The position numbers were made by a program, and so were the translations under genes. A stretch of 64,000 bases of DNA from Octopus vulgaris (taxonomy: Eukaryota), in contig OX597814.1 of NCBI GenBank assembly GCA_951406725.2, positions 138,694,001-138,758,000 on the forward strand. The letters are read 5' to 3'. Positions 7,011 to 59,972 of this stretch are shown here, piece by piece. Every line of letters starts with the position of its first letter. The first letter of the stretch is position 1. Under the pieces are notes generated by a model, which ran no database searches, was not told where the DNA came from, and worked only from the letters and a program-made list of their open reading frames with translations.

Positions 7011-7883
7011 TTATATATGTCTTTCTCACTCTCTCTCTCTCTCTCTCTCCCTCTTTCACCCCCTCTTCTACCACTATATAATGGCCTTCGCTCGTCCATC
7101 GGAGCTGGCTGGTCTCGTGTCTCAAACTACTGAGACATCTTGACATATTCGTCTCTTCTCCCATCATCCCCCTATTGCTTCCGGACCTACCTAGATTTCC
7201 TGCTAATCACAATGTCGGCTCGTTCTCTCCAAAGCATCGGCCAACTGAAATTTTCTCTCCGTTCATGTCCTCCTTTACACGTTTTGATTTACAATAGTTG
7301 AAATGTAACAGTAATGGTTCTGTTCTCATCAGTTTCGGAAGGGCTCCAGAACCATGAGCACTAACCCTTCCTAAAGACTCAACAATAAATATAAAAGGTT
7401 GAACAGCCATTTTGTGAACGAAGTGCAAAAGTTTCTACTATCATAATAAATACTTCGGCGTGTTACCGATATATTTACAAAAAGCGAAAAAAAAAAAAAG
7501 CTTCTTTTATGCAAATAACTATACACTTCATTTTTAAAAAGCAATCTACAAGAACGTCTATAAGTGATGGTGTGCATGAGTCTAGTGTGAGTGAAAGTGA
7601 TTCAGAAAACGATAATAATAATATATTTTTATTATAAATGATCTTGACATTCTTTTTACTTTATATAAAATATTTTTACATTCTGCTGTGGTTTAATTGG
7701 CATTTATTTACGAGCATTATAAATTCTATAACGAATTACGATTTATAACATTGCTATTATGAGAAATTATTGCGCTGCTTTACGAATTTTCACTTAATGA
7801 GCTGTCTCCGGGAGCAAATTAACTCGTATATCGGGACATTACTATATTATATGTGTGTGTGTGTGTGTGAAATCCACAAACAC

Positions 7884-8199: not shown

Positions 8200-9013
8200 A
8201 AATGACTTGAACTCTGCTGTGCATGCGCACTAAGATTTTACATTCTAGCTCACGTCCACTGTTTGCAGTAGTGTTTGGAAGGAAGGTGTATAACATGTGA
8301 TCAGTGCATTGGCCATGACAGAGAATGTTGTAATGGTGATACCTGCTCACGGGCCCACGCAAAGTTGCAGAAAGTTTATGAGGAGTGTATGAGGCGCACA
8401 CAAGTATACAAGTGGTTCAGGCGTTTCCAAGACGGCGGGAAAATGTCGATAGTGACGAAATTTTTGGGAGACCCGCAACCAACAGTACTGAGAAAAACAT
8501 TGCAGATGTGCATGCAGATGTGTGGGGAATCGTCGAATAACATCCGTGACTTATCAGAGGCTGTGCAGATTAGTCACGGTTCACTTCAGTCCATTATCAC
8601 TGAGGATTTGGGTATGAGAAGCGTGTCTGCCAAGTTTGTGTCTAAACTGCTTTCAGCTGACCAAAAAGACACACGGGTTTCAGATGCACAAGATCTCCTT
8701 GACTGTGTCGAGAACGATGAAAACTTTTTGAAAATTTTGTATAGGCCTCTGAACAAGATTCACCAAGCTTTTGGCAAAATTTGATGCAGATTTTCTGCTC
8801 AACTTGCTCTGACATGGCCAATGCGGCGATAACACGCTACACACGTTCATTCTAAGCACTGCTGTAAACAGCGGAAGTAAGCTAGAACGTCAAACTTTGT
8901 GTGCATGCACAGAGACGTTCAAGATGAACCCATGCCAAGTGGATTTACTGCTTTACTCTCCGTGTTTTAGCTTAGTTACTATAGCAACAGTTTGAATACT
9001 TATTGATCATACC
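8200..9013 (+). mobile_element. Internally deleted mariner element with long inverted termini
   Basis: ORF 8275-8784 has the mariner HTH region (QVYKWFRRFQDG...EDLGMRSVSAKFVSKLL); 8807-8915 is an inverted copy of 8215-8323; right end ttattgatcatacc matches the terminus at 47745-47762. Confidence 0.85.
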
Positions 9014-40514: not shown

Positions 40515-40558
40515 ATACACAGGTGCAGGAGTGGCTGTGTGGTAAGAAGCTTGCTTCC

Positions 40559-42555
40559 GTTTGAACTGAGAGGACGCCTCGGTCTGAGCTCCGTCCTAAA
40601 AAGAAAAAAAGAACAAAAACAGCACCTGTTAAAAGTCGTCACGATGGCATGCAGCTGGCGAAAGTTGAACTGAAAGACGCTGTAAGGTAAGACTTTTTGC
40701 TTTTTGAGTCCGGTAGGATTTGTTGCCTGTTGGTTTTAATTTTTGAACAGGCAGGGAGTTCTTACTGAATTCGAAGCTTTTTGTCTGCCTTGCGGCGGAG
40801 ACGTGTGTGTTGTCTCACATAATTATGAGAAATTGTATTTGAAAATATTTGTGCCCATGCGGATTAAAATAATTGGCCAGGAGTACCTTTCGGCCGAAAA
40901 TTTATTTCTTTGCCTGGATTTGAACTCTCTTTTCACAGCTATCATTTATTTAAAAAAAAAAGCTTATTTGAACTGTTACTTTTATTTTTTCTTCCCTTCT
41001 GTTGTGTCTTCTTTCTTTTTTGTGTATCTTTCTTTATTTGAAAACGTATTGACGAACTATATTTGAACTTTTTATTTAAAAAAAATGGCAAAGGAAATAT
41101 TAGTGTGGGAATTAACACCTCCCAAATCATGGCTAAAAGAGCTCGAAAGGAAGATGGTGGTGTTGAGGACTTATTCAAAATTGTTCGATACCATAACCAT
41201 CTTCCCGAAAGCCACAATTTTGAAAGAGCTGGCAGAATACATGCCAGCTATTAAATTTATTTCACGGGGAGTCAAATTTGCAACGGTCTGGTTGCTATTT
41301 GACTCCCCGAAAGAAGCTTGCGATTTTGCAAGCCGGCCCCTCGAGGGGAAGAAAATAATGTTTCTTCCAAGCTACTGTGGAAAGAAATTATTAAAAGCTT
41401 GGATCTGCGGTTTGCCACCCGGAGTTGAGCTCGAGTGGATAGAGGACTCTATTCGCCGGGGTCTGGGTGGTAGCAGTACCAAGCTGCTCAACGTAAAAAT
41501 TTTGCCTGCGGCTTATTGGGAGGGGTCAAAAGCTGTGTTTACCCTATGGACCCAAACAGCCGAAAGTCTGGTTTTCCCAGATTTTTTGAGGATGGCCGGA
41601 TCTAGGTATCCGGTGATTCTCGAGGGACGCCCCCCCCCTAAGTGTCACCTGTGCCTGGAGACCGGCCACATCAAGAAAAACAGGACCCTGGAGCAGTTAA
41701 CAGAGGAACCACTCCCTGCTCCCTCAATGGAGGGAGAGAAGGAGGAGGATGTCGAGGAGGTTTCCACATCCTTGAAAAGACGAAAGCGAAAGGTGGACAA
41801 CAATGGTTGCCCACCGAAGAACCCGAGAGCTGCGGGAGAAAAGGAGGACCTACTGGACACAGCAAGGGAACACCACCCTGCCGCAGTCCAAGGGAAAAAG
41901 AAAAGAAAAAAGAAAAACGGGACATTGCGGGCAGGTTGTGACACGCTGCCGGCGTGTTCCGATTCTCCTTTGGCGGGTGTGCTGCTGGAGGAGGAATTTT
42001 TGGTCCTCTTCCACAAGGGAGGAACCTTGCAAAATGAAATCCAAAAAATTGAAAGGAAGTGCCGGTGGGAGGGGCTTCTGTCCTACACGGAGGACCCTAA
42101 GTGGCCTTCGCAGGTGGCTGCGGAGGTCTTACGGGAGAACGACCTATGGAAGATAGCGAACTCCTTCCCGAAGGACTCCTTCATATTTATGTTGAAACCT
42201 TTAAGTTCGGAACGGACCAGGTGCTTCGATGAAGCGAGGAGCCTGGCCGGGCGGAAAAATTGAAGAGGTGTATTACCTCAAAAAGAGACTAAAACTGTAA
42301 AAAGTGAGAGGATAATTACCTCGTGTTTGTGTTTTATTTTTAATTTTGAACTGTGTAAGAGGTTTATTGCCTCATTGTGTTTTTAAAAAAAAAGTAAAAG
42401 AGAACAATGTTTTAGAGAAGCGAAAGTCGGCGGGCGCTTTTCCTCTTCTCTCATCCTTATCATCCATATATCATCATCATTCATCCCATTAATGTCTCTG
42501 TCTAGCTCTCAAGCTTCTCTCTGTGTGCTGCCCTTGTGGAAAATTTAATGAAATA
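40559..42555 (+). mobile_element. ORF1-only (HAL1-like) non-autonomous L1/Tx1-type retroelement with a 15-bp TSD
   Basis: TSD aagaagcttgcttcc at 40544-40558 and 42556-42570; one long ORF, no RT/EN; tail cccttgtggaaaatttaatgaaat. Confidence 0.85.
41085..42263 (+). CDS. ORF1p/gag-like nucleic-acid-binding protein (RRM-like region, zinc knuckle, basic stretches), 392 aa
   Basis: Uninterrupted ATG-TGA ORF; KAWICGLPPGVELEWIEDSIRR; C-HL-C-LETG-H-IKKN-R (CCHC knuckle with the last Cys lost); KRRKRK and KKKRKKK. Confidence 0.8.
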   Translation: MAKEILVWELTPPKSWLKELERKMVVLRTYSKLFDTITIFPKATILKELAEYMPAIKFISRGVKFATVWLLFDSPKEACDFASRPLEGKKIMFLPSYCGKKLLKAWICGLPPGVELEWIEDSIRRGLGGSSTKLLNVKILPAAYWEGSKAVFTLWTQTAESLVFPDFLRMAGSRYPVILEGRPPPKCHLCLETGHIKKNRTLEQLTEEPLPAPSMEGEKEEDVEEVSTSLKRRKRKVDNNGCPPKNPRAAGEKEDLLDTAREHHPAAVQGKKKRKKKNGTLRAGCDTLPACSDSPLAGVLLEEEFLVLFHKGGTLQNEIQKIERKCRWEGLLSYTEDPKWPSQVAAEVLRENDLWKIANSFPKDSFIFMLKPLSSERTRCFDEARSLAGRKN

Positions 42556-42706
42556 AAGAAGCTTGCTTCCCAATCACATGCTTCCGAGTTCAGTCCGTCT
42601 GCGTAGCACCTTCAGCAAGTATTTTCTGCTATAGCGTTGGGTCGATCAAAGTCTTATGAGTGGATTTTGTAGACGGAAACTGAAAGAAGCGCGTCGTATA
42701 TATAAA

Positions 42707-42746
<40 letters not shown>

Positions 42747-43885
42747 TAGATAGATAGATAGATAGATATAGATATATATGTGGGTGGGGGGTTGTATGTT
42801 TGTCCCCCACCATCGCTTGACAACCAGTGTTGGTGTGTTTACGTCCCCGTAACTTAGGCTTATAAGGAATAAGTTCTGGGTTTGATTTGTTCGACAAATG
42901 ACTGAAACAAGTAAAAGAATAAACGAATATATATATTGTTGTATTTCGGGATGGCCAAATACACACACGTACTATAGACACATACATACATACATACATA
43001 CATACATACATACATACATAAGTGCATATATATTTTTGTTTCTTCACTCTTTTATTGCTATTATTTAATTATTTTAACGGTTGTCCACTGTTTGGAAATC
43101 TTTCGTCACACATCTGTGACACCTTCAGCGACACTTTTCGTTTCCATGTGTGGTCTTGCTCCATTTACTCCATTCTGTTCTTCTAAGATGTGTATCCTTA
43201 TGTGCGTATGGGTTTGTGTCCTTGTATGTGTGTTTGTCTGTGTGAGTGTGTATGTGTATTGTGCGTGTGTGTGTTTGGGTGTGTGCGCGTGTGTGTATGT
43301 TTATGCGTGTGGCTTATTTTTAGCAGCACTGTGGCCTTCTCCTCAGTCCCAACCTCTCACCCCATTCTGCTGCTGCTGTCCTACGACCCGAGGAAAAAAG
43401 AGCTCCTGTATTACTGTGTGTATTTGTGTTCAACCAAGGTGTTGCCATCGTGATAATTGTTGTTGTTATTGCCCTCGATGGTACTGCCGCTCCTGCTGAC
43501 CGTGTCAGTTGTGTTGTTGACATCATATGGCCATCCATGAGGTTTCATGTGTATGTGTGTTTCTATGTGTATATATATGTTCACTTCGTATGTATCCATA
43601 CCTTTGATATAGTTTTATTTATTTATACTATCTATCACTGTCTTACATTTATCACGGGTATCTGGCAGATATATATATATATATATATATATATATTCGC
43701 TTTATTTATCTATTTATCTATTTATCTATTTATTTATTTACTTATTTATATATCTATCTCTATTTCTCATAGGTATCACAGGTAAGTACATATATGTATA
43801 TTGTGTGTGTAGCTTCTGTAATCAAATTGAGGTAGACACAAAATCTTCAATCAACAGCCTCACGATATTGTATACCGTGCGACGT

Positions 43886-46226: not shown

Positions 46227-47088
46227 ATGCGTGGCGTTCGATCATATAATGATATAAATAATATATAAATATATACATATATACATACATATCTGTATGT
46301 ACTTACATCTATATGTATATATACATGCATATATTGGTACAGGATATCAGAAAAACGTAGAACACAATGAGAAACAAAAACATAAAAACAAAAACGTGGA
46401 AACGAACATTTTTCAAGCAACGAAAAGTCAGAGTACAAGACATACAACACAAGGAATAGTCTCCTTCTTCAGTTGTCCCTGTTTCCTCTACTCAGCTTTT
46501 CGAAGGGAAGGACAAGACGCGACTTCGTTGAAACTATCCTTCCTGCAAAGCGAATTAAAATTTTGGATTGTGTGTGTGTGGGGGGGGGGTAAAAGTGGTA
46601 ACAAGAACAGGACAGTAAAAACAAAATAAGACAGTAAAAACAATAAAAGTAAAAACAGTAAAAAACGGAACAAAGAGAATAACAGTAAAAACAAACGATG
46701 AGGACTGTTAAGCCAACACGATGGAAAAATGATTTTGAACGCGTGAGAAGACAGCTTATTATGAGAGAGACAGGATAAGCGGCCTTGTCTTGGTGAACAT
46801 AGCAGTTATCCAAATGTATATATATATACATGCATATATAGTTATATAAGTATATACGTATGTGTATATATATAAAGGTAAGGTAAAGACCCCCTTCGGT
46901 CATGAGTGACCATGGGATTGCACCTAGAAAGTTACCTTGATGGTCGTATTTTGAATGGTCAGTGACGGCTAGCAGTTGCAGTTCAATTCAGGAGAATATT
47001 TCTATTGAAAGGTTTGTTTATGGAATTTGCGTAGGTGTTATACTAAAAAGCACTAGTGATAAAGTTAAGAGGTAGAAGGTGGAGCAAA

Positions 47089-47241
47089 AGAAGAAGAAGA
47101 AGAAGAAGAAGAAGAAGAAGAAGAAGAAGAAGAAGAAGAAGAAGAAGAAGAAGAAGAAGAAGAAGAAGAAGAAGAAGAAGAAGAAGAAGAAGAAGAAGAA
47201 GAAGAAGAAGAAGAAGAAGAAGAAGAAGAAGAAGAAGAAGA
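47089..47241. repeat. (GAA)n microsatellite
   Basis: Directly visible. Confidence 0.98.
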
Positions 47242-47757
47242 AACTTGGCAGACACGCGTTTCATACCCATATCTCCAATGATGATAGACTGAAATGAACT
47301 GTAACTAATCTGCAAATCCTCTGATAACTTACGGATGGTGATTCCCAGATTTCTCCTCACAGCTGCACTTACATATGCATTATTTTTCTCAGTTCTACTA
47401 GTTGCGGGTCTCTCAGAACTTTCGTCAATATCGGCATTTTTCAGCCATCTTAGAAACGTCTGGAACACTCGTACACTTGTGTGCGGCTTATACACTCCTC
47501 TTCATGAACTTTCTGCAGCTTTGCGTAAGCTTCTAGCATGTATCGCCATGACAGCTCTCTCGATCATTGTCAATGCGACGATCACACGCTACACACGGTC
47601 CTTCCAAGCACTGCTGTAAATAGCGGAACCGAACTAATACGCTAAAACCTAGTGCACATGCACAGCATAGTCCAAGGGCAATTTGTGTCAAGCGACTTTA
47701 CTCTGCGTGCTTGAGCTTCGTAACTATGGCAACAGTCCGGATACTAATTGATCAGAC

Positions 47758-48334: not shown

Positions 48335-48465
48335 CGACGATCAGGCGATAAACACCTCTGCAACCTCCGCCCTCCCTTTCAAGGACAGCTTCCGCTCAGA
48401 CCATGTCTGAGTTAGGAGAGCCACCTTTCTCGCCACCTCGTTCCAGTTCTTCTCTATCTGGAGAC
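48335..48465 (-). mobile_element. L1/Tx1-clade ORF2 fragment (post-RT motif)
   Basis: LQIEKNWNEVARKVALLTQTWSERKLSLKGRAEVAEVFI (NW...W..R.LS..GR motif). Confidence 0.8.
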
Positions 48466-58975: not shown

Positions 58976-59242
58976 GTGTGTGTGTGTGTGTGTCTGTGTG
59001 TGTGTGTGTCTGTGTGTGTGTGAACTACATCCATAAATGTATGTATATAAGTTATGTATTACCGATTATATATGCCATAGGAAGTTACTTCTGTATCGAG
59101 CACTTTATCGAACTTTACTTCGAATGATGATTTTGGCTTTTTCCATTCCTCTAAATTTTGTATGTATACATTTTGTATATATATATGTCTGTATGTAAGT
59201 ATGTATGTATATATATATATACATATGTACATATGTACATAT

Positions 59243-59972
59243 GCCATTCCTGGTGATCACTCCAAACATCACGACGTTGACTGTATGCTTGATTTTTTTC
59301 ACTCTTGGTACATGTTTTGGGGACACAGCAAGCTAACGGTTGTTCTGCGTACACCACTTCAGCCTGGCAGAAATTTTTCTCGTTTATGAAAATCCAAAGC
59401 ATGTTCGGTTGGAGGGGATGCTTTAGCTTGCTCAAAAGCTTCGTAGCCTTGATGGCTTGGGATAAAAATTGGCCATTTCTCATCTTGCATGAGAAATACC
59501 GAATGTCTTCATGCACTACCTGCCTGATAAGAAACTCAGGCACTCCAATGTCCCTGGCGATGGACCTGATTGACTTGAAGGGATCGTTATCAATCATGGC
59601 CTTGATCTCACCATCAAATTCAAGATTTCTTTTCTTAGCAAAACGATCAGAGTGAGTTTTCCAAGGAGCCGCACCTTCGAAATCACGATTAGACTCATCT
59701 AACCCTTTCCGAAATCTCTACACTGTCCTCAGATTGACATCCAAACACTCTGAAATGTTCGTATTGGAGCTTGCGGCGCGAATGCCAAGCAATACAGCAT
59801 GTCGTTTCCAAATTTTTGGCAGAGTGAATTGCGTCATAGTACTGTTTTTCACACAGACGATATCCGACTGACCCTACTATACTATGTAGTCGACAAAATC
59901 AAAAACAAACAATGAGTATGCGCGAAATTAAAGATATGAAATGGCGACAATTTATCCATCGCATCCTAGGTA
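59243..59972 (-). mobile_element. Tc1/mariner-superfamily (DD37D/maT-like) transposon 5' half, decayed
   Basis: MTQFTLPKIWKRHAVLLGIRA...DPFKSIRSIARDIGVPEFLIRQVVHEDIRY...WIFINEKNF...KHTVNVVMFGVIT; TIR-like end near 59940-59972. Confidence 0.85.

Follow-up and report, generated by a model that had tools for sequence, protein, structure and literature searches.

A stretch of 64,000 nucleotides of the Octopus vulgaris genome (contig OX597814.1, positions 138,694,001 to 138,758,000; hereafter the window) contains a copy, now decayed, of a multi-copy non-LTR lineage that encodes ORF1 only. The lineage occupies a single base position within an octopus SINE of high copy number, and it was, with high probability, copied and inserted by the endonuclease (EN) and reverse transcriptase (RT) of a 5.4-kb two-ORF element of the L1/Tx1 group residing at the same base. 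The family, its common insertion site, the two-ORF element, the common 3' terminus, the mixed head-to-tail arrays and the purifying selection on ORF1 were all seen directly in the genome.

Results

A 2-kb insert with a single open reading frame splits a SINE

The insert, which lies on the forward strand of the window like all of its features described below, measures 1,997 bp (40559-42555). It is composed of a 526-bp leader (5' UTR, 40559-41084), which begins at a start common to most of 30 copies and presumably contains an internal promoter, a single ORF encoding 392 aa (ORF1, 41085-42263) and a 292-bp trailer (3' UTR, 42264-42555). It is framed by a direct duplication of 15 bp, AAGAAGCTTGCTTCC, the two copies of which (40544-40558 and 42556-42570) are 100% identical. 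No similarity to an ORF2 was found when the insert was inspected for it. Coordinates, duplication, the 392-aa ORF and the missing ORF2 had been read from the DNA letters in the original prediction, and all of them were confirmed in the sequence. The "LINE-type tail" of that prediction is not there: the 3' end of the insert (...AATTTAATGAAATA) directly adjoins the duplication, without poly(A) and without a repeat tail. The sole ORF2-like match in the whole window is a fragment of 40 aa at 48344-48463 on the reverse strand, which is 72% identical to ORF2 of the helper element described below. Three additional frames of the window, at 8272-8781 (+), 47046-47501 (-) and 59154-59717 (-), resemble fragments of mariner/Tc1 transposases by eye.

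Both flanks of the insert are parts of one and the same SINE. In comparison with an empty copy (locus L143), positions 40522-40555 correspond to bases 1-34 and positions 42556-42737 to bases 23-204. The 5' part of the SINE head (40522-40543, matching bases 1-22 of the empty copy) includes an A-box-like motif, TGGCTGTGTGG (40532-40542), which was identified by eye, and the SINE is interrupted directly 3' of this motif. On the other side, the right copy of the duplication, an exact repeat of the left one, represents target sequence and leads into the rest of the SINE (42571-42920), which comprises a B-box-like motif (42587-42596), an internal microsatellite and a tail; here, alignment to the empty copy covers 42556-42737 and 42797-42857, and the end near 42920 was placed by eye. 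The SINE has a length of ~445 bp and 25 matches within the window. Its A- and B-box-like motifs, again assigned by eye, occur at tRNA-like spacing and its copy number is high. ARAGORN detected 0 genes in the empty SINE copy, a comparison of this copy with Rfam gave no match to a tRNA, and the box-like motifs are what suggests a tRNA origin of the head. Known octopus SINE families include OR1, OR2 and OK.

The insert belongs to a family of elements encoding ORF1 only

A nucleotide search using the insert alone yielded at least 45 matches (the best 40 of 2,647 candidates were scored), about 30 of which are near full length, 84-94% identical and have their ends in common. When the genome was searched with the ORF1 protein, scoring the best 150 of 10,565 candidates, further subfamilies appeared. 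ORF2 was present downstream of ORF1 in 0/30 loci from this protein search, and none was found directly after the ORF1-only units of 20 further loci chosen to span the subfamilies, in which the units have sizes of 2.0-2.5 kb and end ~300 bp past ORF1. A one-off deletion of ORF2 in the window copy is thus ruled out by these two sets of loci, and the proposal of a multi-copy non-autonomous family is borne out by the ~30 near-full-length 2-kb copies with common ends and by the sister subfamilies.

Full-length ORF1-only frames of the sister subfamilies are 48-87% identical to the window protein. In another, much younger subfamily the ORFs of 7 copies are 99.2% identical. The closest named protein, the single hit of a protein search with a single sequence, is an Octopus sinensis sequence with 66% identity across 70% of the ORF. 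The annotated O. sinensis gene LOC115225585 belongs in the ORF1-only clade and is probably a misannotated element. A search for longer, fused forms of the ORF1 protein, weak evidence according to a warning of the tool, returned none. In a tree of the N-terminal region comprising 26 rows, which is midpoint-rooted and carries a long-branch warning, the 13 ORF1-only rows including the O. sinensis protein make up one side of a 100/100 branch with a length of 1.57; the ORF1-only clade does not group with ORF1 of the helper in this tree and sits on a long branch.

Counting estimates of dN/dS between 13 intact ORFs of different subfamilies gave medians of 0.21 for residues 1-200 (78 pairs), 0.40 for the linker (76 pairs) and 0.57 for the C-terminal part (78 pairs), on which selection was weaker than on residues 1-200. 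These estimates indicate that ORF1 evolved under purifying selection in the source lineages (dN/dS ~0.2).

Apparent swaps of the C-terminal half were noticed in the ORF1-only subfamilies L076, L108 and L197, L076 and L108 combining different N-termini with an L197-type C-terminus. Moreover, L169, L203, L215 and L240 are units of 0.8-1.5 kb at the same SINE site, which begin alike, with CCCATGAGTCT or CCCGCGAGTCT, show hardly any coding similarity and are possibly deleted or non-coding passengers.

ORF1 is a predicted RNA-binding protein

A Pfam scan of the window ORF found no family, and among 71 aligned relatives only knuckle families recurred in Pfam. An AlphaFold model based on the 71-row alignment (mean pLDDT 74) has high values for residues 11-185 (~90-97), low values for residues 199-301 and moderate values for the C-terminal domain. 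As modeled, the protein folds into two RRM-type domains (residues 11-99 and 100-182; 41115-41630), and downstream of the zinc knuckle (41643-41681) a basic disordered linker precedes a predicted folded C-terminal domain (residues 304-389; 41994-42251). The top Foldseek matches of the model are tandem-RRM proteins (E 4e-5 to 4e-4). In VIA-align, residues 11-99 were superposed on the La RRM (Z 8.4, rmsd 2.6, 82 aligned) and residues 102-180 on p65 (Z 7.9, rmsd 2.2, 68 aligned), which are middling scores in both cases. The Atlas places the window protein near CCHC proteins and ZCCHC3-type RNA-binding domains (0.90-0.92), and the CCHC motif is intact in 28 of the 29 other full-length ORF1-only frames. 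Taken together, the model, its structural matches and the aligned frames support the RRM-plus-zinc-knuckle architecture proposed at the outset, with two RRMs instead of one RRM-like region and with a knuckle that is present in the relatives and broken in the window copy. Two RRMs followed by a CCHC knuckle match the type I ORF1p scheme as laid out in the available text of PMC5203782. For the C-terminal domain, the Atlas gave no match, and a profile search detected it in none of 150 related proteins, including ORF1 of the helper.

The window copy is a dead relic of its lineage

The window copy is 3.6% diverged from the majority sequence of its subfamily, the mean of 22 aligned copies being 3.5%, and its private changes comprise 16 nonsynonymous versus 3 synonymous ones (private pN/pS 1.56). 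Alignment to relatives revealed that its knuckle has been reduced to C-x2-C-x4-H, the final Cys having been removed by an in-frame 18-bp deletion after position 41681. Therefore, the attributes "young" and "intact" that had been assigned to this copy had to be withdrawn, even though its frame is open. A full-length frame is kept by only 3 of the 30 closest copies, the window copy among them; some of the frameshifts among the copies may represent assembly errors. In sum, the 22 copies carry 265 nonsynonymous and 97 synonymous private changes, a pN/pS of 0.80 that is near neutral, and for changes common to at least three of the 22 copies the ratio is 0.23. The low ratio of the shared changes as compared to the private ones, together with the dN/dS of ~0.2 across subfamilies, indicates that the source elements needed the protein and that inserted copies decay.

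Contigs of two sequencing runs, which we guessed to be RNA, cover 29/30 and 30/30 bins of the element, a result from which transcription of any particular copy cannot be inferred. Compared with runs X18 and X20, the contigs of which are labelled as two other organisms, the segment 40520-42690 was covered in 30/30 bins at 85% or above. One X18 contig joins 40545 to 42396 and resembles a truncated insertion at the SINE site.

Most insertions occur at one base of the SINE head

In a search with the element only, 27 copies (L013 and L015 being duplicates) had an intact 3' end, and in each of them the next bases are AAGAAG or differ from it at one position; a scored SINE body continues from 23 of these copies, the 5' end of another element from two and a damaged SINE from two. 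Genome-wide, a pattern representing the 3' terminus of the family, free of any target sequence, gave 1,203 matches, of which 974 are followed by exactly AAGWAG; the reversed-pattern controls gave 1 and 0. Of the 99 family 3' ends present on contig C1, 80 lie exactly on target. Individual reading of the remaining 19 ends assigned 10 to mutated or shifted SINE sites, 1 to an array junction, 2 to positions elsewhere in the SINE (one further down the SINE, one facing a reversed SINE head) and 6 to off-target sites. These sites are not random, and the suspected preference for the SINE head is thereby substantiated; tRNA genes, which had been considered as targets as well, are absent from the junctions read. 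Insertion by target-primed reverse transcription, also part of the original prediction, is supported. Ten 5'-truncated copies are located between SINE head and body and have duplications of 6-16 bp. At L245:2468, a family 3' end is joined to a reversed SINE head at a near-palindromic site, possibly through antisense insertion or inversion. The off-target 3' end L256:2466 is followed by the apparent head of another repeat, which may resemble a second octopus SINE.

Exact empty SINE sites number at least 59,944 in the genome, 56,133 with AAGTAG versus 3,811 with AAGAAG, and the window subfamily resides on AAGAAG (or the one-base variant) in 27/27 cases despite the more numerous AAGTAG sites. AAGAAG SINEs have a median divergence of 20%, and in a sample of 40 AAGTAG SINEs 72% exceed 4% divergence, SINE ages being derived from 72 copies and inflated by subfamily structure; the AAGTAG SINEs beyond 4% probably predate the window subfamily. 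The restriction to AAGAAG SINEs could stem either from a helper enzyme specific for this variant or from RNA pairing.

A two-ORF element at the same site is a candidate helper

An element encoding endonuclease and RT was found between two ORF1-only units in one array. A search with its RT gave at least 135 scored matches, dozens of them at 95-98%, and 8/8 young RT matches that were fetched sit in the same SINE site, mostly as units of ~5.45 kb and in one case of 4.97 kb. ORF2 of this candidate helper is open (1,140-1,150 codons from stop to stop) and contains APE, RT and zf-RVT domains, while its ORF1 carries a CCHC motif; the window ORF1 is 28% identical to helper ORF1 over 189 aa (E 6e-15). 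Human L1 ORF2p is the nearest solved protein to helper ORF2 (E 1e-66, as compared to 1e-19 for R2). Solved structures place the helper only in the L1 group, within which it likely belongs to the Tx1 clade. A two-ORF sister family, whose RT shares 72% identity with that of the helper (L149-L154, 3' ends near 7240), is located in (TC)n microsatellites in 6/6 copies, as is Kibi according to the available text of PMC4494074, which is a pointer to the Tx1 clade rather than a test. At L222:3632 and L224:6507, similar 3' termini precede AAGAAA and TATC-type repeats, which may be a third target, used by a related family. A protein of Argonauta hians is 64% identical to the RT region of the helper.

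Helper and ORF1-only elements share only the last 30-45 nt of their 3' terminus (TGCC-N5-GGCA...AAATA), and beyond the last 19 nt there is no meaningful DNA similarity between the helper and the window element. A 4-bp stem is predicted in the common terminus, with no compensatory change in 12 sequences. One stem pair is broken in the window copy and a few others, and the terminus of the window copy has a C-to-A change at 42540. Young helper copies and young ORF1-only copies are both ~99% identical. A census of junctions on C1 (67 of 84 matches) counted 35 ORF1-only units, 10 units with ORF2 and 22 that were short or unassigned, class labels which undercount ORF1-only units since a distance cut-off placed L166 and L175 under "UTR-only". 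The 17 junctions outside the census comprise 11 ORF1-only, 5 two-ORF and 1 unclassed unit, and census and additional junctions together give a ratio of ORF1-only to two-ORF units of about three to one on C1. Nine of the 10 ORF2-bearing census junctions are followed by SINE body and the tenth by another element. Twenty older two-ORF loci were also fetched, many of which had lost their ends: two broken ones end on AAGAAG with TTCC-type sequence (L237, L239), a third ends on AAGAAG with TTAC, and an intact helper at an AAGAAG site was not encountered among the 20. One copy of the window subfamily (L158) adjoins the 5' end of an older-type two-ORF element. For the suggestion that RT and EN are borrowed in trans, the two-ORF element with its identical insertion base, its common 3' terminus and its presence in mixed arrays thus provides a candidate donor. 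Mobilisation in trans is likely, the observations behind it being this co-occurrence and the short common terminus.

Part of the left duplication follows the element and insertions stack into arrays

The left and right copies of the duplication were compared in 49 full-length insertions, taken from the younger subfamilies and the helper; 4 differences fall within positions 1-8 and 55 within positions 9-15. Positions 9-15 of the left copy follow the element: at position 13, 7 of 31 informative insertions have A in the left and T in the right copy, and the reverse was seen in 0. Therefore, full-length RNAs likely begin with a few target-like bases. Judging from these related subfamilies, approximately bases 1-8 of the left duplication copy in the window (40544-40558) would come from the target, and bases 9-15 were likely carried by the element. 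Of the perfect 15-bp target site duplication initially reported, the exact repeat is real, but left bases 9-15 are probably not target-derived.

Arrays are frequent: by eye, 8 of 67 junctions on C1 adjoin the 5' end of another element. At L155-L156 (G000:C1:223689311-223706779), one SINE contains an array of eight units, i.e. seven ORF1-only units followed by one helper. The ORF1-only units of this array are 99.5% identical and several have the same frameshift; the array could also be a tandem duplication. Given the tens of thousands of free sites, stacking exceeds the expectation for a random choice. At L183 (G000:C1:111116891-111116968), two junction motifs are arranged back to back in opposite directions, forming a short inverted structure.

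Discussion

Our data can be combined into the following working model. The element RNA would be translated and subsequently coated by its own protein comprising two RRMs and a knuckle. ORF2p of the helper would recognise the common last 30-45 nt of this RNA, nick the bottom strand of the SINE just 3' of the A-box motif and prime cDNA synthesis there, followed by cleavage of the top strand 6-16 bp downstream. Full-length RNAs would start with a few target-like bases, giving rise to positions 9-15 of the left duplication, and these bases may rebuild a usable site, on which later copies can stack into arrays.

The SINE sequence on both sides of every full-length copy would likewise be explained if one ancestral chimera of SINE and insert had been copied as a unit by the partner LINE of the SINE, in which case the common site would reflect descent and not targeting. 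We regard this as hardly credible. Divergence is much greater in the SINE flanks than in the inserts, and the two do not vary together: element 3' ends are 94.6% alike versus 79.2% for the flanking SINE bodies, with no correlation (rho -0.13, 136 pairs, 17 loci), and in the young subfamily the values are 99% for the inserts and 86% for the flanks. An identity of 0.71 obtained upstream of the SINE was disregarded, since it arose artificially from free end gaps in short DNA of low complexity. Since the SINE bodies are diverged and uncorrelated with the inserts, and since truncated copies retain the SINE head with varied duplications, the insertions must have been independent. Furthermore, target variants private to L095, L104 and L189 recur in the duplication on either side of the insert, and the site is common to unrelated subfamilies and to the helper. 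Scarcely more probable is that selection holds the window copy itself open, as a domesticated gene or as a source element that is still active. It is among the three of 30 copies with a full-length frame, but its 16:3 private changes, the lost Cys of the knuckle and its ordinary divergence of 3.6% are at odds with this idea. Somewhat less remote, though still improbable, is the derivation of the ORF1-only elements from repeated internal deletions of a closer two-ORF element, which would be rare, extinct or missed, without any old self-standing lineage. A rare two-ORF element with such an ORF1 is conceivable, as the best 150 of 10,565 ORF1 candidates were scored, and helper copies with internal deletions are common (L110, L222-L225). 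However, subfamilies that are 48-87% identical all lack ORF2 and all keep the ORF1-only 3' UTR, they are found together with the O. sinensis protein on one side of the 100/100 branch, and selection acted between them.

Another alternative differs from the explanation we prefer, i.e. mobilisation of the ORF1-only lineage by the two-ORF element, solely in the mechanism of site choice. At its ends, the RNA would carry bases derived from the target, namely the 5' tag and a 3' read-through into the duplication, and these may pair with the nicked target, so that site choice would be partly RNA-guided and each subfamily would inherit the SINE variant of its donor. This is possible, if doubtful on present data. 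It would fit with left duplication positions 9-15 following the element (position 13: 7 versus 0 of 31) and with the window subfamily residing in 27/27 cases on the old AAGAAG variant or its one-base variant, although AAGTAG empties outnumber AAGAAG sites (56,133 versus 3,811). However, older helpers are also found on AAGAAG and an endonuclease with that preference gives the same counts, young elements enter TTAC sites with a TAAC tag, the tags are deduced from DNA, and the SINE ages come from the 72 copies with their inflation by subfamily structure. More speculative still is a parasite system with three tiers. Hitchhikers with ORF1 only, ~3:1 in excess of the helper, would inherit their landing site via target-derived RNA tags, so that a non-LTR integrase machinery common to both would be steered by RNA among the SINE variants, and hitchhiker ORF1 would possibly serve the helper like HeT-A Gag serves TART.

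Non-autonomous LINEs in which ORF1 is present are, in the available text of PMC5786205, HeT-A (Jockey), HAL1 (L1) and Ag-Sponge (CR1); HAL1 (half-L1) of mammals is treated there and in PMC5753468. Like HAL1, the octopus element is a non-autonomous derivative within the L1 group, which encodes ORF1p only and forms a family with defined ends and duplications. In contrast to HAL1, whose ORF1 is of the mammalian coiled-coil/RRM/CTD type (type II, Transposase_22), the octopus ORF1 combines two RRMs with a CCHC knuckle. HAL1 has a poly(A) tail and inserts in an untargeted manner, whereas insertion of the octopus element is site-specific and occurs without a poly(A) tail. HeT-A and its partners TART/TAHRE, whose arrays and Gag role in Drosophila are covered by the text available of PMC5537684, provide the second parallel: here too, an ORF1-only element with conserved ORF1 outnumbers its RT-bearing partners and forms mixed head-to-tail arrays at a fixed type of site. 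However, HeT-A belongs to the Jockey clade, sits at chromosome ends and serves its host, whereas the octopus element is of the L1/Tx1 group, sits inside a dispersed SINE with a duplication and is not known to serve its host. Ag-Sponge is also an ORF1-present non-autonomous LINE, but is derived from CR1 (PMC5786205, available text). The octopus element works like HeT-A and HAL1 and is a member of neither.

Among the targets of Tx1-clade elements described in the available text of PMC4494074 and PMC4640811 are Mariner-N4_AMi for Tx1-Mar, (TC)n/(TTC)n for Kibi/Koshi and U2 for Keno. The octopus system shares with these elements the APE-type endonuclease and the sequence-specific insertion into multicopy repeats including other transposons, with Utopia the precise 3' and variable 5' junctions and the stacking (same sources), and with Tx1-Mar the carriage of non-autonomous passengers, which is SINEU in Tx1-Mar. 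It differs from them in that the target is a SINE head and in that the passengers encode ORF1, neither of which is named in the available text of these two papers. Octopus repeat surveys (PMC13282606, PMC8967140) give L1-Tx1 families without structure or targets in their accessible parts, and the CORE status of the octopus SINE OR2 is addressed in the part available of PMC4758252. No account of an ORF1-only SINE-targeting family was met in the literature searched, which was largely that outside subscription journals; consensus sequences may be deposited in Repbase, in Dfam or in the octopus repeat library of PMC13282606. Two known behaviours, the ORF1-only LINE and site-specific insertion, here into a SINE, are thus joined in a combination not met in this literature.

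Measured against HeT-A, HAL1 and Ag-Sponge, the three listed in the available text of PMC5786205, the octopus family appears to represent a further, fourth origin of non-autonomous LINEs with ORF1 alone, and its insertion into a SINE is site-specific. With young, open-frame copies of helper and passenger sharing one target, it becomes testable why a non-autonomous LINE retains ORF1, i.e. for itself or for its helper, and the natural series of target variants permits a test of protein-only versus RNA-assisted site choice. For the SINE, insertion between the A and B boxes should silence the respective copy; for the element, the SINE would offer tens of thousands of harmless landing sites.
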